Source: a virus
Taxonomy: Duplodnaviria; Heunggongvirae; Uroviricota; Caudoviricetes
Reading direction: 5' to 3' (one strand)
Virus record (IMG/VR): IMGVR_UViG_2568526086_000005
Location: 1 to 39,463 of that record
Length of the DNA: 39,463 bases
Shown here: one piece after another, positions 29,531-39,463 of the stretch
Position numbering within the stretch: position 1 is the stretch's first letter
How the letters are laid out: the number at the start of each line of letters is the position of its first letter
Position numbers and translations under genes: made by a program
The notes under the pieces: generated by a model
Database searches by the model: none
Seen by the model: only the letters and a program-made list of their open reading frames with translations
Told to the model about the DNA's origin: nothing

Positions 29531-29724
29531 GTCCTGTCCTCGAATCCATGCCAGAAGGTGAGGATTTCCTGATGCGCCCGGTGGATGCCGGGCTCATCCC
29601 TTACACCGCCCTGAAAGATGGATCAGTCGACCTGGCTGATATTGCCCGTATGAATGACTGGCTGGACCTGAAAGCCGATAACGAAAACCGTATAGCGAAA
29701 TGGAGAGAGGCTAATGAACGCTGA
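29111..29724 (+). CDS. Tail assembly chaperone long form made by -1 programmed frameshift at T_TTT_TTG (29485-29491) (GT-like)
   Basis: The -1 frame after the heptamer stays open to 29724 and reads FFERTPRQRDAYPAIGPVLESMPEGEDFLMRPVDAGLIPYTALKDG.... This is the usual arrangement upstream of a tape measure gene. Confidence 0.5.
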
Positions 29725-31714
29725 AACGCTCAAGGACTTTCTGATCTCGCTTGGGTTCAAAGTTGATGAGGCTGGCGCCAGAAAATTCGATGCCGTCGTT
29801 GCCGGGACAACGCTTAAAGCGATTGAGCTGGGCGTCAAAGTTGAGGCGGCGGCGCTTTCCGTCGTTGCATTCACCGCGAAAATTGCCAGCGGTCTCGACG
29901 ACCTGTACTGGGCCTCTCAGCGCACAGGCGCGACGGTGGAGGGCATTAAGCAGATTGGGTATGCGGTTAGTCAGGTTGGCGGCAGTGTCGACTGGGCCCG
30001 CGGCTCTCTCGAAAATCTTGCCCGGTTCATGCGTAACAATCCCGGCGCTGAGGGTTTCCTGAACCGGCTGGGGGTTCAAACGCGTGATGCCAGCGGCAAC
30101 ATGCGGGATATGGCGACGATCTTTACCGGCGTCGGCCAGCGTCTTAGCAGCATGCCGTACTACCGTGCAAACCAGTACGCACAGATGCTGGGTATTGATG
30201 AAAATACCCTGATGGCAATGCGCCGTGGTATTGGTGAGTACATGGGCCAGTACAACGCGATGAAAAAGGCCATCGGGTTCAATCCTGAACAGGCTGCTGC
30301 TGCGTCTAACAGGTTTATGACCTCACTCCGTTCCCTCGGCGAAATGGCCGGTATGGCGCGGGACAAAATCGGTTCCAGTCTGGCCGATGGTCTGACGGGC
30401 TCGCTGGACCGCCTGCGCCGTCAGATCATGGAGAATTTCCCGAAAATTGAAGGGGCTATCACTGCTGGTGTCAAAGGTGTCCTGTGGTTTGGTGAAATCA
30501 TTGGCCGGGTGGTTTATCGGTTGATACAGCTCACAGGGGACATTATCAACTGGTGGAAATCACTCAGTACCGAAACCAGACAAGTTATTGAGGTATTTGG
30601 CGCATTGATGGTTGCATGGCGCCTTCTGAATACCGCCTTTGCGATGTCGCCCATTGGCCGTGTCTTTATGCTGGGAGCCGCGCTGATAGGTCTCTACGAC
30701 GATTACCGTACGTGGAAAGAAGGCGGCCAGTCGCTCATAGACTGGGGGAAATGGGAGCCGGGTATCAAATATGCCCAAAAGGCTTTTGCCAGCCTGAGTA
30801 AGGACTTTGGTGGCATCTATCTGAAGGTTAAAGACCTTGGCTCTGCCATCGTCGATCTGGGTAAGCGATTCCTTGAATTCATTAATATCGATACGTCGAA
30901 ATTTAATGGCAAATGGCTGTTTGACCAGATTATCGAAAGCGTCCGCAGTTCAATCAAAATCCTTGGTTCGCTGGTGGACGCTCTGCGAAAGGTTATTAGT
31001 GGCGATTTCTCAGGCGCATGGGATTCGCTTAAAGGCGCAGCCGCAGCGTGGAGTGATAGCCCGATTATTCAGGGTGCCGCCTCTGTCGGGCAGGGGTTAT
31101 GGGATAAGGCTGTTGACTGGTGGAATGGTGATGCCACGCAGTACGGACAATCAGTGAAACGACCGTCACCTTCAAAAGCTGGCGCTCAGTTGCTTGGATG
31201 GATGGCCCCGATGATGGGTAAGCTGGAGGCTATGTATAACCTTCCTTCTGGTCTTCTGCGAAGTGTCGCTATCACTGAATCAGGGGGAAATCAGTTCGCT
31301 GTATCCGGTGCCGGCGCACAGGGAATGTTCCAGTTTATGCCTGGCACCGCTCGGGATATGGGGCTACGCGGGAATGATGTCTTCGACCCGATCAAGTCAG
31401 CGGAAGCGGCGGCGCGATATCTATCGATGCTCCTGCAGAAGAACGGCGGAGATCTGGGTAAAGCTCTGGCCTCGTATAACTGGGGGATCGGTAACGTGCA
31501 GAAATACGGCATGGCGCTGATGCCGCAGGAAACCAGGCAATATATCCCGAAGGTGTTGAGCAATATGCCGGGGGCTGGCGCGACATTGAACCAGAATACC
31601 GTTATCAACATTTCTGGTGTCAGCGATCCGAGAGAGGCGGGGAAAATCGTCTCTGAAAGCCAGGGCAACGTTAATGCACGCGCTACCCAGCAACTAACCA
31701 GGGGGCCGAGCTGA
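29714..31714 (+). CDS. Tail tape measure protein with C-terminal lytic transglycosylase (SLT) domain
   Basis: 666 aa, helical N-terminal two-thirds with hydrophobic segments. C-terminal ..SVAITESGGNQFAVSGAGAQGMFQFMPGTARDMG..YNWG.. is an SLT catalytic motif (E-S...GLMQ-type). Confidence 0.75.
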   Translation: MNAETLKDFLISLGFKVDEAGARKFDAVVAGTTLKAIELGVKVEAAALSVVAFTAKIASGLDDLYWASQRTGATVEGIKQIGYAVSQVGGSVDWARGSLENLARFMRNNPGAEGFLNRLGVQTRDASGNMRDMATIFTGVGQRLSSMPYYRANQYAQMLGIDENTLMAMRRGIGEYMGQYNAMKKAIGFNPEQAAAASNRFMTSLRSLGEMAGMARDKIGSSLADGLTGSLDRLRRQIMENFPKIEGAITAGVKGVLWFGEIIGRVVYRLIQLTGDIINWWKSLSTETRQVIEVFGALMVAWRLLNTAFAMSPIGRVFMLGAALIGLYDDYRTWKEGGQSLIDWGKWEPGIKYAQKAFASLSKDFGGIYLKVKDLGSAIVDLGKRFLEFINIDTSKFNGKWLFDQIIESVRSSIKILGSLVDALRKVISGDFSGAWDSLKGAAAAWSDSPIIQGAASVGQGLWDKAVDWWNGDATQYGQSVKRPSPSKAGAQLLGWMAPMMGKLEAMYNLPSGLLRSVAITESGGNQFAVSGAGAQGMFQFMPGTARDMGLRGNDVFDPIKSAEAAARYLSMLLQKNGGDLGKALASYNWGIGNVQKYGMALMPQETRQYIPKVLSNMPGAGATLNQNTVINISGVSDPREAGKIVSESQGNVNARATQQLTRGPS

Positions 31715-32313
31715 TGGATATTCTTTCAACCCTTTTCCAGCAGCGGAGCCGCCGTATTGGTCTGATGATACCCGATGTGGTGGTTTCAGAGCGTCATAGC
31801 GATGCTCTGGAGGTGACAGAGCATCCAGTTGAAAGGCCTACAAGCGCAGGAACAGGGTTCATTGCAGACCATGCATATCGGCGCCCGTCAGAAGTCGTTA
31901 TGGAGATAGGCTTTGCTGGTGGTGGTTCCTTGCTGGATTTTTATGATACAGCAGGCATCGGGCTGTCTACGCCCCTTAACAACATGGGGCCTAAGGAAGT
32001 CTATGCTGAGCTGCTCAAAATGCAGCAGGAAAGGCAGTTGCTTGATGTAACCACCGGGAAGCGTCTTTATACCAATATGGTGATCCGCTCTCTGGATGTG
32101 ACGACCGAACGTACCAGCGAAAACGTACTGATGGCGACAGTTACACTGAGGGAAATAATCACCAGCCAAACGCAGACAGTCAGCGTGGCAGCGAAGGAAA
32201 ACATGAAAGAGGGGGTAAACACGTCAGCGGTGCAAAATTCAGGAGTAAAGACACCGACTCCGAAAGATGAGTCGCTAATAAGCCGGTTTGTCGGTTTCAT
32301 CTCGGGAGGTTAA
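31714..32313 (+). CDS. Tail/baseplate protein (hypothetical)
   Basis: 199 aa, ATG overlapping the tape measure stop. Confidence 0.5.
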   Translation: MDILSTLFQQRSRRIGLMIPDVVVSERHSDALEVTEHPVERPTSAGTGFIADHAYRRPSEVVMEIGFAGGGSLLDFYDTAGIGLSTPLNNMGPKEVYAELLKMQQERQLLDVTTGKRLYTNMVIRSLDVTTERTSENVLMATVTLREIITSQTQTVSVAAKENMKEGVNTSAVQNSGVKTPTPKDESLISRFVGFISGG

Positions 32314-32616
32314 ATGGCTGTTTCAGAAATCCCTCTATCACCAGAAAACCAGCGATTCTCCATATCTGTTGCAGGTCAAAGCCTGCAAATGGCTGTCACC
32401 TGGCGTGCTGCTTTCTGGTGTCTGGATATTATGGACAGTACCGGGGCCGACCTGATAAAGGGGATCCCGCTTATCACCGGCGCCAACCTGCTGGCTCAGT
32501 ATCGCTATCTCGGGCTTGGCTTTTCGCTCTATGTCAATTGCGACGACCCAGCAAATGATAATCCAACCCAAACCGACCTCGGCATTAAAAGCCATCTCTA
32601 CGCAGTAACGGAGTGA
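32314..32616 (+). CDS. Tail/baseplate protein (hypothetical)
   Basis: 100 aa, immediately follows the previous gene. Confidence 0.45.
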   Translation: MAVSEIPLSPENQRFSISVAGQSLQMAVTWRAAFWCLDIMDSTGADLIKGIPLITGANLLAQYRYLGLGFSLYVNCDDPANDNPTQTDLGIKSHLYAVTE

Positions 32617-32618
32617 TT

Positions 32619-33647
32619 ATGTCTCAGAACTGGATGCGGCACTTTGAGCTGCAGCTTATTGACGACAAGGGTGATGGTGTTTCGCTGTCGGATTTTAAGG
32701 TGACGTTTAATATCCAGAAGATGCCCGCGACTATCTTTAACGGATTCGTGGGTAACTTCAAAATCTACAATCTGTCGCCGGAGACACAAAACCGGATCAT
32801 GGGTAAAGAGTTTACTCGTGTAAGGGCTATTGCCGGGTATAACGGCACAGCAGACAGCAGTGGTAACTATCCTGATAAAAATGTGGGGATCATCTTTAAC
32901 GGTGATATTCGCTTTACCGTTACCGGAAAAGATAACGTCACCGATAGTTGGGTGCTCATCCAGTGTATTGATGGCTGGGAGGGGCATCTCAACGCCAGCG
33001 TGAAAACGACAGTATCGGCAGGCTGGAAGCATGCTGACCTGTTTGATTTGGGTATGCAGTCCCTTAGCCATTATGGCATTACAGAGGGAAGCAGGCCGGA
33101 TTTTGGTCCAACTGTATTCCCCCGCGGCCGCACTATTTATCAGAACACTGGACGCCTGATGTACAGCCTTGCAGGGCAATGTAAGGCTAATTGGTGGTAC
33201 GAAAACAACCAGGTGCATATTGTTCCTGATGATAAGTACATACAGGAAGCGATTGTACTGAACGCCAATACGGGCCTGATCGGTATGCCTCAGCAGACGA
33301 TGGGCGCCGGGGTAAATGTGCGCTGTCTGATAAACCCGAATATTAAGCTTGGTGGGCTTATCAGGCTGGATCAGGCCTCTGTATATCGTCAGGCTCTCGG
33401 TAATGACCAGGTTGGCCAGTCACCAGGTATCTTAGGCGAAAGTACCACAGACGGTAACATCTATGTCGATGGGCTTCCCGGGTCGCAGCTGGCGGCAATC
33501 AATACCGATGGTGATTACATTGTCGGCAGCATTGACTATACTGGCGATACTCGCGGGCAGGCGTGGTATATGGACCTGCTGTGTCTGGCGAAAGGGGCTC
33601 GGGATTTGCTCAACTCAAAAGGTTTGGATGCGGCGCAATACTCATGA
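32619..33647 (+). CDS. Baseplate hub-like protein
   Basis: ATG at 32619 (GGAG RBS; the track ORF starts at GTG 32613). About 342 aa, in the tail module after the tape measure. Confidence 0.5.
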   Translation: MSQNWMRHFELQLIDDKGDGVSLSDFKVTFNIQKMPATIFNGFVGNFKIYNLSPETQNRIMGKEFTRVRAIAGYNGTADSSGNYPDKNVGIIFNGDIRFTVTGKDNVTDSWVLIQCIDGWEGHLNASVKTTVSAGWKHADLFDLGMQSLSHYGITEGSRPDFGPTVFPRGRTIYQNTGRLMYSLAGQCKANWWYENNQVHIVPDDKYIQEAIVLNANTGLIGMPQQTMGAGVNVRCLINPNIKLGGLIRLDQASVYRQALGNDQVGQSPGILGESTTDGNIYVDGLPGSQLAAINTDGDYIVGSIDYTGDTRGQAWYMDLLCLAKGARDLLNSKGLDAAQYS

Positions 33648-33988
33648 AGAAAATCATTACTGCTTGTATTTTTTCCCTCTTCCTTTCCGCCCCTGCTTTT
33701 GCGGATACTTCCTGCGGACCGTTTGGGATCAACTGGAAGGCGCAGGATGGATTTGCGCGGATAAACGGCGCTAAGCCAGAGTCGCAGAAGATTACATTTC
33801 TAAAGGTAAAAAATGATTACAACAATGTGAAAATACAGTGGATGCTTCCTGACGCCAGATCTGGGCGTTGGCTTGGAATGGATTTTGTCGCCCGAAACGG
33901 CAAGCCTATCCTCAACGTCGAAGTGATCCGCAAGAACATGGACGAGCCCAGAGAGTTCTGGACGTACGACTGTCGGAAGGTGAAGTAA
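33644..33988 (+). CDS. Small secreted protein of unknown function (cassette gene 1)
   Basis: 114 aa from the ATG overlapping the baseplate-hub stop (ATGA). Signal peptide MKKIITACIFSLFLSAPAFA with an AxA cleavage site. Two Cys in the mature part. Confidence 0.55.
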   Translation: MKKIITACIFSLFLSAPAFADTSCGPFGINWKAQDGFARINGAKPESQKITFLKVKNDYNNVKIQWMLPDARSGRWLGMDFVARNGKPILNVEVIRKNMDEPREFWTYDCRKVK

Positions 33989-34037
33989 TCTGGTTGCTCG
34001 CTATTTTATGTGCTTAAAGGCAGGGTAGGTAAGCGTT

Positions 34038-34220
34038 ATGTCAAATTTTCTCACCGGTGTAAAAATTGATCATCCGCCTATCCCTTGCGAAGACCTGAAA
34101 TGTGAACAGGAGAGAACGGGGGATATTTTTATTAATTACCCCGTTAATGGAGAAAGATTTTCCCCAGAAAATCCCGCCGACAATGCATTTAACGTTAAAA
34201 CACCAAGCGGTAGTGATTAA
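34038..34220 (+). CDS. Hypothetical small protein (cassette gene 2)
   Basis: 60-aa ORF with ATG and a weak RBS. AT-rich. Coding status uncertain. Confidence 0.3.
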   Translation: MSNFLTGVKIDHPPIPCEDLKCEQERTGDIFINYPVNGERFSPENPADNAFNVKTPSGSD

Positions 34221-34262
34221 GCTCATTTAATCCCCTAATCTGTTTCAAAAACAGGAGGGGAA

Positions 34263-34829
34263 ATGAACGCTTACGACTACAAGAAAGCAGTTTACCGGAT
34301 AGCAAGGCATGAGGCTGGTCATTGGCTTGCAGCCTACATCTTGGGATGGGATCCAAAAAAAATTGAACTAAAAGTTCCCAGCTCGGAAAATAGTCATTAT
34401 GGCTATGCGTTATGCGCCTATAAAGTAAATTTAGAGACTATATGTGATGTCAGAGATTACGCTCGTGGCAGAGTTAAGGTGCTCTATTGTGGTGCATATG
34501 CTGATGGTTATGATGGATATAATTTTGACTATGAAAGAATAGGGCGTGAGATGGGGCGCACAGGTGGTGCGTATTCTGATTTTTGGAAAGCCGAAGAGAT
34601 ATATTTCTTTTATTATAATTGCCTTGAGAGTAAAGGTGATTGGGAGTACGAATTTAATCCTATTGTGAACGACGTTAAATTGTTAGTCAGAATGCATCAT
34701 GACTTCCTTGATTCTGTTGGAAATTATGCAAAAGATAAAGCTTTGAACATCGGTGATGTTATAGAGATAACTCCTGATACTCTCAAAACCTTGTTCATAG
34801 AAAGTAAGATAAGACTCCCTTCTTATTAG
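34263..34829 (+). CDS. Stand-alone FtsH-like (M41-type) zinc metallopeptidase domain protein, no AAA+ module (cassette gene 3)
   Basis: 188 aa, strong RBS AGGAGGGG. HEAGH at residues 16-20 inside RIARHEAGHWLAAYILGWDP, then LYCGAYADGYDGY and GAYSDF. These parallel FtsH's YHEAGHAI..HDP, LYGGRLAEE and GASND (third zinc ligand). AT-rich. Confidence 0.55.
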   Translation: MNAYDYKKAVYRIARHEAGHWLAAYILGWDPKKIELKVPSSENSHYGYALCAYKVNLETICDVRDYARGRVKVLYCGAYADGYDGYNFDYERIGREMGRTGGAYSDFWKAEEIYFFYYNCLESKGDWEYEFNPIVNDVKLLVRMHHDFLDSVGNYAKDKALNIGDVIEITPDTLKTLFIESKIRLPSY

Positions 34830-34842
34830 CTTATAGTTAAGA

Positions 34843-34866
34843 AGCCCGCTCCGGCGGGTTTTTTAA
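34843..34866 (+). terminator. Rho-independent terminator closing the inserted cassette
   Basis: GCCCGC-TCCG-GCGGG followed by TTTTTTAAT, 14 nt after the stop of the peptidase-like gene. Confidence 0.55.
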
Positions 34867-34882
34867 TGCCGGAGTAAACCAA

Positions 34883-35536
34883 ATGCCCGTAGCACTAAAC
34901 TCCCAGCTCGGCAGTAAAGAGCAGGCAGACGCACAACTGGCGCAGGCGATCATGTCTGCAATGCGCGTCTCCATGCCTGGCATCATTCAGTCGTTTGATC
35001 CGGACGCCGTCACCGCTGTTGTTCAGCCAGCCATTAAAGGCGCAGAGCAGGACGAATCCGGCGCCGAGGTATCGGTAAACCTCCCGCTACTGGTAGATGT
35101 TCCTGTCATCTTCCCTCGCGGCGGAGGTTGCACGCTGACTTTTCCTGTTAAGGCTGGTGATGAATGCCTTGTTATCTTTGCAGACCGCTGTATTGATTTC
35201 TGGTGGCAAAGCGGAGGTATTCAGGAGCCAGTAGACGAGCGCATGCATGATTTATCCGATGCCTTCTGCATTGTTGGTCCGCAGTCGCAGGCAAAGAAAA
35301 TAGGCGGTATCAGCACCAGTGCGGTAGAGCTGCGCAGTGATGACGGGGAAACAAAGTTGAGCCTTAATCCTGCCAGCGGAGCTATCAACGGTACGGCGCC
35401 GGGAGGTTTTAACCTGAACGGGCTTAAAATTCTTTCTGACGGCCGCCTGCAGCTGGTGGATGGCTCAGTCGTTGATAAGCATACGCATGGTGGCGTTGAG
35501 CCTGGTGGCAGCAGTACAGCACCACTCGGAGGATGA
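34883..35536 (+). CDS. Baseplate central spike/assembly protein (Mu gp45 / gpV-like)
   Basis: 217 aa, RBS GGAG. Position and size fit a baseplate spike. Gly-rich C-terminus. Confidence 0.55.
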   Translation: MPVALNSQLGSKEQADAQLAQAIMSAMRVSMPGIIQSFDPDAVTAVVQPAIKGAEQDESGAEVSVNLPLLVDVPVIFPRGGGCTLTFPVKAGDECLVIFADRCIDFWWQSGGIQEPVDERMHDLSDAFCIVGPQSQAKKIGGISTSAVELRSDDGETKLSLNPASGAINGTAPGGFNLNGLKILSDGRLQLVDGSVVDKHTHGGVEPGGSSTAPLGG

Positions 35537-35537
35537 T

Positions 35538-35891
35538 ATGCGATACCGTCGAGAAGATGACGATGGGGATTACACCTTCGGTCAGGGCGATGATACGTGG
35601 CTGGTTAACTCCCCAGAGGCTGTCGCGCAGGCCATAAAAACGCGATTTCTGCTTTGGTACGGGCAGTGGTTTCTGGACACCACAGAAGGTACGCCATGGA
35701 TTCAGTCCGTTCTGGGTAAGCAAAGGCCGGATACCTACAACCTCGCTATCCGTAAGCGGATCCTAGAAACGCAGGGGGTTAGCTCAATCACTGCATTTAA
35801 CACCACCGTTGACGGTACCACGCGCCGTGTAACGTTCACAGCAACGGTGGAAACCATCTACGGGACAACCACAGTAACTTCGGAGGCGTAA
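35538..35891 (+). CDS. Baseplate protein (Mu gp46-like)
   Basis: 117 aa from ATG 35538 (RBS GGAGGA; overlaps the previous stop). Confidence 0.5.
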   Translation: MRYRREDDDGDYTFGQGDDTWLVNSPEAVAQAIKTRFLLWYGQWFLDTTEGTPWIQSVLGKQRPDTYNLAIRKRILETQGVSSITAFNTTVDGTTRRVTFTATVETIYGTTTVTSEA

Positions 35892-37087
35892 TGGCTCTGG
35901 ACCTCGACACACTCGGCTTATCGGCAACGGTAACCGCTGAGGGGATAAGTGCGCCTGATTATCAGACGATACTCAGCACCCTGATTAGCTATTTTCAGCA
36001 GATTTATGGCAGTGATGCCTATCTCGACCCGGACAGCAAAGACGGACAGATGGTCGCTCTGGTGGCTCTGGCCATTCACGATGCCAACAACACGGCCATT
36101 TCTGTTTACCGGTCATTTTCTCCGTCGACGGCGCTGGACGATGCATTAACCAGTAACGTCAAAATTAACGGCATCACTCGCCGTGCTGCGACAAACTCTA
36201 CGGTCGATGAGCTGATCGAAGGTGAGGCCGGAACGTTAATCACAAACGGCTCTGTGAAAGATGCCAACGGCATCATCTGGAATCTTCCTGCTCAGGTGAC
36301 AATTGGTATTGATGGGACGGTTATTGCTACAGCGACGTGTTCTGTTGCTGGCGCTGTGGCGGCCCCTGCCGGGTCAGTCAATAAGATAAACACCCCGACA
36401 CGTGGTTGGGTATCAGTAACTAACCCTCAAGCGGCCACGGTAGGTGTTGCTGCTGAAACAAATGCTGAATTGCGTGTCCGGCAATCACAGAGCGTTGCTT
36501 TACCGTCTCTGACGCCGTTTGAGGCGGTAGATGGTGCGATAGCAAATATCAGCGGCGTAACGCGACATAAGCTGTATGAGAACGATACAGATACCACTGA
36601 TGTAAATGGCCTTCCTCCGCACTCAATCGCGGCTATTGTCGAAGGTGGTGATGCGACGGTCATTGCAAACAGTATTCGTGGTGTTAAAGGGCAGGGCGTA
36701 ACACCATACGGTAGTACGGTGATTGTTGTGCCTGATAAGTACGGAAACCCTCACCCGGTAGGTTTTTCAAGACCGGTCGATGTACCCATTTACGTCAAAA
36801 TCACTATCGAGCCCCTTACGGGCTACACATCCCAGGTCGGCGAAGAGATAAAGGCGGCTGTATCTGCCTACATTAACTCTCTGGCAATCGGCGCCAGCGT
36901 TCTTCTCAGTCGCGTTTACTCACCGGCTAACCTGGGCGTCGTCAGTGGAGGTAATGCCAGGTATTACGACATTACCGAGTTGCTGATCGGGACGTCTGCC
37001 GGTGGCGTAGCCGCGGCAAACGTGGATATTGCCTTTGACCAGTCAGCATCCTGCGCCGTCAGCAATATTAATCTGGTGGTCTCATGA
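35891..37087 (+). CDS. Baseplate J-like protein (Mu gp47 / P2 gpJ family)
   Basis: 398 aa, largest baseplate gene, in the usual order before the fibre genes. Confidence 0.65.
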   Translation: MALDLDTLGLSATVTAEGISAPDYQTILSTLISYFQQIYGSDAYLDPDSKDGQMVALVALAIHDANNTAISVYRSFSPSTALDDALTSNVKINGITRRAATNSTVDELIEGEAGTLITNGSVKDANGIIWNLPAQVTIGIDGTVIATATCSVAGAVAAPAGSVNKINTPTRGWVSVTNPQAATVGVAAETNAELRVRQSQSVALPSLTPFEAVDGAIANISGVTRHKLYENDTDTTDVNGLPPHSIAAIVEGGDATVIANSIRGVKGQGVTPYGSTVIVVPDKYGNPHPVGFSRPVDVPIYVKITIEPLTGYTSQVGEEIKAAVSAYINSLAIGASVLLSRVYSPANLGVVSGGNARYYDITELLIGTSAGGVAAANVDIAFDQSASCAVSNINLVVS

Positions 37088-38987: not shown

Positions 38988-39463
38988 TGAGTGAATACGA
39001 TACCGGCAATCCTGTGCCGTCTGCATCAATACCTGATGCATGGGATAATATGCAGTCTATTGACAGGTTCGCTAATAGTAGTGATGAAACTATTACCACG
39101 CGTACAGGTAAACAGTTAGACACTCTGCATGGCATCAATGTAAAGGCTGATAGCCAACGTACTGAACAACAAGATTCCTTTGAATTATCTCAATCCGAAA
39201 GAGAGTCCTCTTTCGAAGAAAAATCAAATGAATTTGAATCGCGCTTCTCTTCTCAGCTATCAACACAGGAGTCAACATTTTCCGAATCTCAAACGGATAA
39301 AGAAAATCGCTTTCAGCAGTTTCTTCTTTCATCCGGTTATGTCTTCCTGGGGGATTACGGAAATGGCCCATTCCAGTTTAGCGCCCGCAACCAGTACATC
39401 CGTTACTGGATTTGCCCCTATATTTCCAGACATCTGTTATCACTTAACCCATTACAAGCCCGC
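38988..39463 (+). CDS. 5' part of an ORF running off the window end; hydrophilic Ser/Glu/Gln-rich protein, possibly a second fibre/tailspike or accessory protein
   Basis: ATG at 38988, then 158 codons with no stop to the window edge. AT-rich. Two overlapping minus-strand ORFs in the track conflict with it. Confidence 0.45.

Follow-up and report, generated by a model that had tools for sequence, protein, structure and literature searches.

What is a gene for a small, apparently secreted protein doing among the genes that build a phage tail tip? The question is raised by a window of 39,463 nucleotides (nt) from a tailed phage (Caudoviricetes; positions 1 to 39,463 of IMG/VR virus record IMGVR_UViG_2568526086_000005), in which the gene of a 114-amino-acid (aa) protein (33644–33988, + strand) overlaps with its start the stop codon of the baseplate hub gene. 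An earlier reading of the letters, made without database searches, had proposed that the product is exported, that its translation is coupled to that of a baseplate gene, and that it is either a moron acting in the lysogen, for example by exclusion, or a partner of a peptidase-like protein encoded downstream. The comparisons described here indicate that the gene is accessory rather than a part of the tail, and that its alleles move between phages by recombination. A tentative answer to the question, given with somewhat less than even confidence, is that the protein is a periplasmic factor of the superinfection-exclusion type.

A Conserved Gene Coupled to the Baseplate Hub

The open reading frame (ORF) called at this position was matched over its full length by PHROG 3443 (E = 6.2e-45, residues 4–114 against a 115-position profile), a family whose PHROG function category is unknown. 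Its ATG (33644–33646) shares bases with the TGA (33645–33647) of the 344-aa hub gene, forming an ATGA start/stop overlap (33644–33647, + strand), and the upstream gene was identified as a hub by both Pfam and PHROG, which bears out the proposed coupling to a baseplate gene.

The sequence-only reading had named beforehand, as its refutation, an ORF conserved in no related element. A protein search instead recovered 83 homologue clusters at 90% identity, all from Enterobacterales, with full-length members 47–99% identical; a profile search of 1.8 billion representatives returned only 57 clusters (50% identity), and a scan of IMG/VR found the family in 474 viral contigs. Because of these two sets of clusters, the 474 contigs, and a ratio of nonsynonymous to synonymous divergence (dN/dS) of about 0.1, the ORF is judged from its conservation to be a genuine phage gene, far beyond chance. 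Three long repeat proteins from the profile search (P0128, P0132, and P0134) were set aside as spurious, their matches being inflated by repeats.

A protein 99% identical to that of the window, WP_029487556.1, bears the RefSeq name ‘STY1065/STY2022 family phage-derived protein’. The NCBIfam library of hidden Markov models (HMMs) held no model matching the window protein, and the RefSeq name was thus not reproduced by HMM; a literature search on the locus tags STY1065 and STY2022 found no relevant paper.

Predicted Export, the Cysteine Pair, and the Predicted Fold

Residues 1–20 (MKKIITACIFSLFLSAPAFA; 33644–33703, + strand), followed by DTSC, form a predicted Sec signal peptide. Its n-region carries positive charge, its h-region is hydrophobic (10 residues with a mean Kyte-Doolittle value of 2.6), and it ends in an A-x-A site, the predicted cut falling after AFA. 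On a heuristic reading, the succession of MKK, IITACIFSLFLSAP, and AFA before the aspartate agrees with the features of a signal peptidase I substrate. The same n/h/c architecture was common to all 59 hub-adjacent homologues examined, while the signal sequence itself was about 70% divergent. The Sec-type signal peptide of the sequence-only reading is supported on this basis, and the small protein is, from these features, very probably exported to the periplasm. A lipobox (L-[AS]-[GA]-C) was not found in the window protein, where the first mature cysteine stands at +4 after AFA (DTSC). Homologues read A-A-L-Q-C, K-G-M-Q-C, and similar, and a lipobox occurs only in fusion proteins of about 290 aa (P0089, L029, and L031).

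The mature part of 94 aa (33704–33985, + strand) contains two cysteines, as had been described, and the pair is conserved in nearly all full-length homologues. Cys24 (codon 33713–33715, + strand) is invariant, Cys110 (codon 33971–33973, + strand) persists in 90% or more of the homologues aligned, and their spacing is always 83–87 residues; Cys8 of the window protein lies within the signal peptide. The structure prediction that had been proposed as a check was run with AlphaFold2 and gave an all-beta model, a small up-and-down beta-barrel, for which an informative structural match was not found. Cys24 is located in the first strand (residues 22–24) and Cys110 in the last (residues 104–112), and a candidate Cys24–Cys110 disulfide would hold the barrel. 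Two blocks are conserved in the family alignment: INGxKPESQKITFL and the C-terminal LNVEVIRKNMDEPRxFWTYDC.

A sequence profile search of the PDB with the small protein gave no match. An outer-membrane beta-barrel, which would call for amphipathic transmembrane strands, an aromatic residue at the C-terminus, and, with eight strands, a length of roughly 140 aa or more, was rejected on size, charge, and C-terminus. Membership in the MliC/PliC lysozyme inhibitors was also rejected, as neither a Pfam MliC domain nor a close structural match to their eight-stranded barrel with its inhibitory loop was found.

An Accessory Gene Tied to One Hub Clade

A genome search anchored on the hub protein yielded 78 loci from about 30 genera, and in 58 of them a family member begins at the stop codon of the hub. 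The start offsets from the hub stop are mostly -4 or -1, and nearly all lie within -11 to +13 nt. Two further loci (L029 and L031) encode a lipoprotein of about 290 aa whose C-terminal domain is the family domain, and in seven (L016, L019, L027, L034, L042, L050, and L055) an unrelated signal-peptide protein or lipoprotein occupies the first position, three of these retaining a 3′ remnant of the family gene. Four loci are cut by contig ends, one is disrupted by a transposase, and one is broken by an N-masked stretch that leaves only the C-terminal part of the family gene readable. The remaining five have more distant hubs: in four of them (37–39% identity) the spike follows the hub directly, and one is a pseudogene. 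A second survey, anchored on the family, covered 80 IMG/VR viral contigs. The hub was immediately upstream in 80/80, the small gene ending 331–355 nt past the hub stop, and the distance from the small gene to the spike varied from 65 to 2,915 nt.

The gene is thus tied to this hub clade, and the tail architecture can exist without it. Since the distant hubs precede the spike directly and other loci substitute unrelated exported proteins, the small gene is, by this comparison of loci, accessory rather than a tail part. The first position seems to require an exported protein rather than this particular fold.

Lipoproteins of 265–380 aa in the first post-hub position (P0089, P0102, L029 6075–6941, L031 6099–6989, L027 6068–7207, and L050 6086–7210) share an N-terminal domain of about 190 aa (motif ...IPVFYAAYHEYG...), which in some is fused to the family barrel domain. 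The remainder of the L027 and L050 lipoproteins had no match to the family profile, and searches of Pfam, PHROG, and NCBIfam with the first-position lipoproteins gave no match.

A classical moron has its own promoter and terminator, an atypical base composition, and a sporadic distribution among related phages. The sequence-only reading had taken the small gene for a moron, and this stood in part: the gene is accessory and its product apparently exported. As a typical moron it was rejected, since its GC content (0.48–0.50) is like that of the tail genes, no terminator-like site was found by consensus scan in the gap that follows it, and practically all members of the hub lineage carry the gene (58/78 hub loci, and 80/80 contigs in which it follows the hub). 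It has no intergenic region of its own.

Exchange of Alleles at the Small Gene

Comparison with Klebsiella phage ST340-VIM1phi10.1 revealed an allelic replacement patch (33590–33932, + strand) comprising the last ~55 nt of the hub gene (about 18 codons), the signal peptide, and the first three-quarters or so of the small gene. Nucleotide identity is 45–73% within the patch and 93–100%, mostly 97% or more, in the flanks. The borders are sharp, and the conserved 3′ end of the small gene is again 100% identical. This conserved 3′ end and the tail of the hub gene probably serve as crossover points.

Divergence was compared across 50 locus pairs with a hub amino-acid distance below 0.10. The median distance was 0.35 for the whole small protein and 0.27 for its mature part, followed by 0.22 for the spike, 0.14 for the tape-measure protein (TMP) C-terminus, 0.09 for the plug, 0.07 for baseplate J, and 0.05 each for the hub and Dit. 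The synonymous divergence (dS) of the small gene was saturated where that of the hub was 0 to 0.9, and even where it was 0 to 0.2; one pair of loci with identical hubs (L059/L061) had a small-gene dS of 1.17. In the same hub-similar pairs, dN/dS was ~0.11 for the small gene versus 0.024 for the hub. Because dS is saturated at near-zero hub dS and dN/dS is low, the diversity is best described, on these sequence distances, as that of old allelic lineages kept under purifying selection and moved by recombination, not of fast point evolution. The 113 distinct mature sequences fall into 38 clusters at 80% identity.

The spike (34883–35536) and the TMP C-terminus (31050–31714) rank next after the small gene in mosaicism within the tail tip. 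Over its 3′ two-thirds (35084–35536), the spike gene is 96.7% identical to Klebsiella phage Mulock, and the remaining region is only about 70% identical.

In Serratia aquatilis CP173186 (L074 6095–10983 = L005), the hub–spike interval holds seven tandem paralogues, of which six are intact and one is split. Each intact copy has its own signal peptide, and the copies have divergent N-terminal halves and nearly identical C-terminal halves, an arrangement that resembles arrays of immunity or specificity genes. The array is broken by a transposase gene, and one of its copies is of the distant Mulock type.

These data bear on the possibility that the small protein is a tail component or assembly factor, its hydrophobic N-terminus serving as a membrane anchor or uncleaved segment, that joins the hub in assembling the baseplate or penetrating the membrane. 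In favor of such a role stand the absolute synteny of the two genes, the coupling of their translation, and the annotation of the homologue in Klebsiella phage Mulock as a ‘putative membrane protein’. It is nevertheless very unlikely: the small protein diverges five to seven times faster than the hub, Dit, and J and swaps independently of them, it is replaced by unrelated exported proteins or absent beside sister hubs, and it occurs in up to seven copies. The conserved cysteine pair and the A-x-A site speak rather for cleavage and a periplasmic location, the Pbunavirus ORF that lies between hub and spike was not modeled in the E217 and Pa193 virion structures (the PB1 version being without a signal peptide), and the frame of the small gene relative to the hub is not conserved, which makes a frameshift fusion unlikely. 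A programmed fusion of hub and small protein was itself rejected, as no slippery site was seen by eye and the relative frame varies (-11 to +13). An apparent hub fusion in L066 was traced to an artefact of an N-masked stretch.

A Promoter-Like Element within the Hub Gene

A consensus scan revealed a promoter-like element within the hub gene (33514–33542, + strand), consisting of a -35 hexamer ATTACA, a 17-nt spacer, and a -10 hexamer TATACT. It was the sole promoter-like site found by the scan on the + strand, its -10 hexamer lies about 100 nt upstream of the small gene, and its score is enriched over those of hub-interior windows (11.7 vs 6.0). The element overlaps a conserved hub motif, DYIVxxIxYTGDTRG, and was therefore considered as a possible by-product of protein conservation. 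The codon of Thr310, whose third base (33542) is the last T of the -10 hexamer, is ACT in 87/94 dereplicated hubs and in 112/118 distinct versions, whereas the major codon has a share of at most 67% at 65 other conserved four- or sixfold degenerate hub sites. The threonine three codons past Thr310 uses all four codons about equally, and at T220 ACT accounts for only 12%, so that ACT is not the preferred threonine codon elsewhere in the hub. The tyrosine codon of the -10 hexamer is TAT in 86% of hubs, compared with 42–45% at two other invariant tyrosine positions. TATACT is absent from four hubs without a slot (which have YH, YK, or TAT ACC), and is kept in hubs whose slot opens with a different exported protein.

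Because a synonymous site is frozen beyond protein constraint, the conserved TATACT suggests an internal sigma-70 promoter that would drive the slot genes apart from late transcription. It may also be an element of some other kind at the nucleotide level.

A near-identical E. coli prophage carries NinG, a Q antiterminator, a holin, and a GH108 endolysin, in keeping with lambdoid regulation, and the tail genes are on these grounds placed in a Q-dependent late operon. With its start tied to the hub stop in that operon, the small gene is expected to be expressed late. Synthesis might then be confined to the time at which the tail genes are expressed, and the protein would act in the periplasm toward the end of the lytic cycle instead of in the lysogen. 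It could shield the cell that produces it, or the debris of that cell, from progeny that attack prematurely or eject wastefully (‘lysis from without’ or progeny loss), or it could alter the envelope ahead of lysis. The overlap of its start with the hub stop in a Q-antiterminated operon would fit such timing, as would the weak Shine-Dalgarno sequence of the window copy, which suggests dependence on coupling, the tail-like GC content, and the presence of the gene in nearly every member of the lineage. We consider this reading unlikely. The lysis cassette (holin, GH108 endolysin, and small ORFs) lies elsewhere and looks complete; allele diversity, arrays, and unrelated replacements are hard to square with a housekeeping lytic function; the frozen TATACT points to transcription apart from that of the late operon; and most homologues bear their own 4-base Shine-Dalgarno sequence, located within the variable C-terminal codons of the hub.

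Proposed Function

The data agree with a soluble accessory protein of the periplasm that has one conserved and one variable face and whose gene heads an island of conflict genes. The proposed mechanism is as follows. The carrier would be one lineage of temperate Enterobacterales myoviruses with lambdoid regulation, in which the small gene holds a fixed place at the head of an accessory island between hub and spike. The ~10-kDa protein would be made late, from a start coupled to the hub stop in the Q-dependent operon, and probably also in lysogens, from the candidate sigma-70-type promoter within the final ~130 nt of the hub gene. After Sec-dependent secretion, it would fold in the periplasm as a small beta-barrel with a Cys24–Cys110 disulfide. 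It would remain outside the virion and act in the envelope on an incoming phage as the tail tip crosses the periplasm. The constant face, formed by the two conserved blocks (INGxKPESQKITFL and LNVEVIRKNMDEPRxFWTYDC), would do an unchanging job, and the variable segments (residues 28–39, 54–57, and 68–73) would set specificity, with allele diversity sustained by recombinational exchange of cassettes.

By analogy with known exclusion proteins, a periplasmic factor of this type is an answer that we hold tentatively, at less than an even chance. We infer export, the disulfide, promoter activity, and exclusion from comparisons rather than from direct observation. Consistent with exclusion, the export features and the cysteine pair are kept across 59 or more homologues while the signal sequence drifts; the allele polymorphism, the tandem array, the neighborhood of conflict genes, and the candidate internal promoter point in the same direction.

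Several observations weigh against exclusion. Searches of Pfam, NCBIfam, and PADLOC with the window protein gave no matches, and the AlphaFold2 model had no structural match indicating a mechanism. The candidate -35 hexamer is weak, with 3–4 of 6 positions matched. The gene is near-universal in the hub lineage and tightly coupled to a late structural gene, which is unusual for an exclusion gene. Positive selection was not seen, the small-gene dN/dS being ~0.1 and the divergence old, with saturated dS. In the hub-similar pairs, small-protein distance did not follow that of the hub (rho = -0.12), the TMP C-terminus (-0.07), or J (-0.23), and was weakly correlated with that of the adjacent spike (0.30). 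The same fiber, WP_025270001.1, occurs in two E. coli prophages whose alleles are 99% vs 32% identical to that of the window, and by this pairing a blocker in the style of Llp or Cor, matched to the phage's own receptor, was rejected; in Wanchaivirus PDP110P2, fiber DNA is shared at 96% and the allele is only 34% identical. A Spackle-style inhibitor of the phage's own TMP lytic transglycosylase was likewise rejected on the lack of correlation with the TMP C-terminus. In Salmonella relatives, the family is present and the TMP has no Pfam SLT match on record. It is partly because the alleles follow none of the phage's own tail-tip parts that confidence in exclusion is kept below even.

A more specific form of the exclusion proposal is possible but doubtful, namely that the hub-linked gene is the specificity element of an undescribed phage–phage exclusion system. 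Shuffled periplasmic beta-barrels, served by a promoter in the hub gene, would each recognize a different tail tip or envelope intermediate. The alleles would pile up in arrays, as in Serratia, like orphan immunity genes, and the post-hub position would be a dedicated slot for envelope guards that unrelated exported proteins can also fill.

The protein could instead help the lysogen against threats other than phages, as a periplasmic binder or inhibitor. Such a role is improbable; it might take the form of an immunity-like inhibitor of wall-degrading effectors (from type VI secretion systems (T6SS), or bacteriocins or lysozymes), or of a ligand-binding barrel that alters the physiology of the envelope as a form of lysogenic conversion.

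Cargo of the Hub–Spike Slot

The small gene is followed by variable cargo of low GC content (34038–34829, + strand; GC 0.36–0.41 over 34000–34880), consisting of a 60-aa ORF (34038–34220) and a gene for a 188-aa protein with a HEAGH motif of the zinc-peptidase-like kind (34263–34829). The two products match only PHROGs 34871 and 36675, of unknown function category. Only this cargo looks moron-like. GenBank puts the short cargo ORF of Klebsiella phage ST340-VIM1phi10.1 on the opposite strand.

Across 158 loci of the hub–spike slot (L015–L173), 84 cargo clusters were found, including Phd/Doc (Fic), PD-Lambda-1 defense, Bro-N/P22 antirepressor-like, and Arc-like repressor proteins, EACC1, and DUF4236. 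Judged by this gene content, the hub-to-spike interval is a hotspot of accessory and defense (conflict) genes. Further cargo includes tRNA_anti-like OB-fold proteins, HEPN-looking proteins, several more exported proteins and lipoproteins, and many proteins that could be given no family. The Phd/Doc genes occur as toxin–antitoxin pairs.

The sequence-only reading had offered the peptidase-like (HEXXH) protein encoded downstream as a possible partner of the small protein. Its gene is not the next one, as the 60-aa ORF intervenes. A partnership, with the small protein serving the HEXXH protein as substrate, as inhibitor, or as a companion in the periplasm, is encouraged in this window by the position of the HEXXH gene, 275 nt from the small gene on the same strand. 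The partnership was rejected because the 188-aa protein accompanies the family in only 5/80 viral contigs and 0/78 genome loci, and it is scarcely credible on other grounds as well: the HEXXH protein lacks a signal peptide, the cargo block has a different GC content, and the block is 100% identical in Klebsiella phage ST340-VIM1phi10.1, whose small-gene allele is only 64% identical.

Comparison with Known Systems

P2-type hotspots and the lom and bor genes of lambda exemplify accessory-gene (moron or defense) hotspots in the late operons of prophages. The small gene resembles these in standing at the head of a slot between two structural genes, whose variable cargo includes toxin–antitoxin and defense genes. 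It differs from typical hotspot cargo in being non-sporadic, tail-like in GC content, and coupled to the hub; it is a constant presence that nevertheless swaps alleles.

Start/stop overlap of a homologous hub gene with the ORF that follows it is also seen in Pbunaviruses (PB1 ORF40, L014 12601–13134; E217 gp42; Pa193 gp43), where the product of this ORF was not modeled in the cryo-electron microscopy (cryo-EM) structures of the virions. PB1 ORF40 is 177 aa long and has neither a signal peptide nor similarity to the small protein. It shares the position, but for want of a signal peptide it was rejected as a counterpart.

Spackle (gp61.3) of phage T4 is a small protein with a cleaved periplasmic signal and a disulfide that acts on the incoming tail tip (PMC7677548). 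It is a 75-aa alpha-helical bundle whose gene is an early one, and its target for inhibition is the gp5 tail lysozyme (PMC7677548). The window protein is likewise a small phage protein with predicted periplasmic targeting and a candidate disulfide. Unlike Spackle, it is a predicted 94-aa beta-barrel encoded in a late tail operon, and its alleles do not track the muralytic domain of the phage's own TMP. A relationship to Spackle in sequence or fold was rejected, given the lack of a Pfam match and an all-beta model as opposed to a helical bundle.

Llp of T5 and Cor of T1 and phi80 are small exclusion lipoproteins, encoded in the tail module, that act from the periplasmic side (PMC9586334). In Llp, a Cys11–Cys58 disulfide constrains the two termini (PMC9586334). 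The small protein is similar in being a small envelope protein encoded in the tail module beside a tail-tip gene. Llp and Cor jam the phage's own receptor and are encoded beside the receptor-binding gene, whereas the small protein has no lipobox, is encoded beside the hub, and is uncoupled in its alleles from the fiber. Lipoprotein fusions of the family domain do occur in two loci (L029 and L031).

The family is thus catalogued yet uncharacterized, and a small exported accessory protein in a phage tail module is a known kind. As far as was searched, the position locked to the hub, the rule by which the slot opens with an exported protein, the cassette-like exchange of alleles, the paralogue array, and the hidden promoter signature are new.

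The Tail-Tip Module and Other Features of the Window

The surrounding genes constitute a myovirus tail-tip module. It includes the TMP with a lytic-transglycosylase C-terminus (29714–31714), a Dit-like protein (31714–32313), the plug (32314–32616), and the 344-aa baseplate hub, which is E217 gp41-like (32613–33647, + strand; Pfam PF22759 (E217_GP41), PHROG 196 ‘baseplate hub’). The central spike (34883–35536, + strand; Pfam PF18352 (4e-45) and PF18946), with its gpV-like N-terminal domain and Apex motif, forms the downstream border of the slot and is followed by the sheath initiator gene and then by baseplate J (35891–37087). In 14 E. coli prophages, an extra stretch of about 280 bp lies between the spike and the sheath initiator (L001 4438–4718), and is absent from the window at ~35536. 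The last ~60 nt of the window (39403–39463) are 98–100% identical to IS2, which suggests either an insertion sequence downstream of the tail-fiber region or the end of the element.

Distribution and Significance

Temperate phages with this type of tail are frequent in Klebsiella, Salmonella, E. coli, Serratia, Pantoea, Yersinia, and Photorhabdus, and 25/5,426 complete E. coli genomes match the hub-to-spike DNA of the window. Whatever its function, the small gene offers a clean natural case of cassette exchange within a late operon, a slot that always opens with an exported protein, and a probable promoter in a structural gene that is visible only as a frozen synonymous site. If allele-specific periplasmic exclusion proved to be true, a role that has not been described for this family, the small protein would be a widespread determinant of phage infection of lysogens in clinically important Enterobacterales, with a bearing on phage therapy and on competition among prophages.

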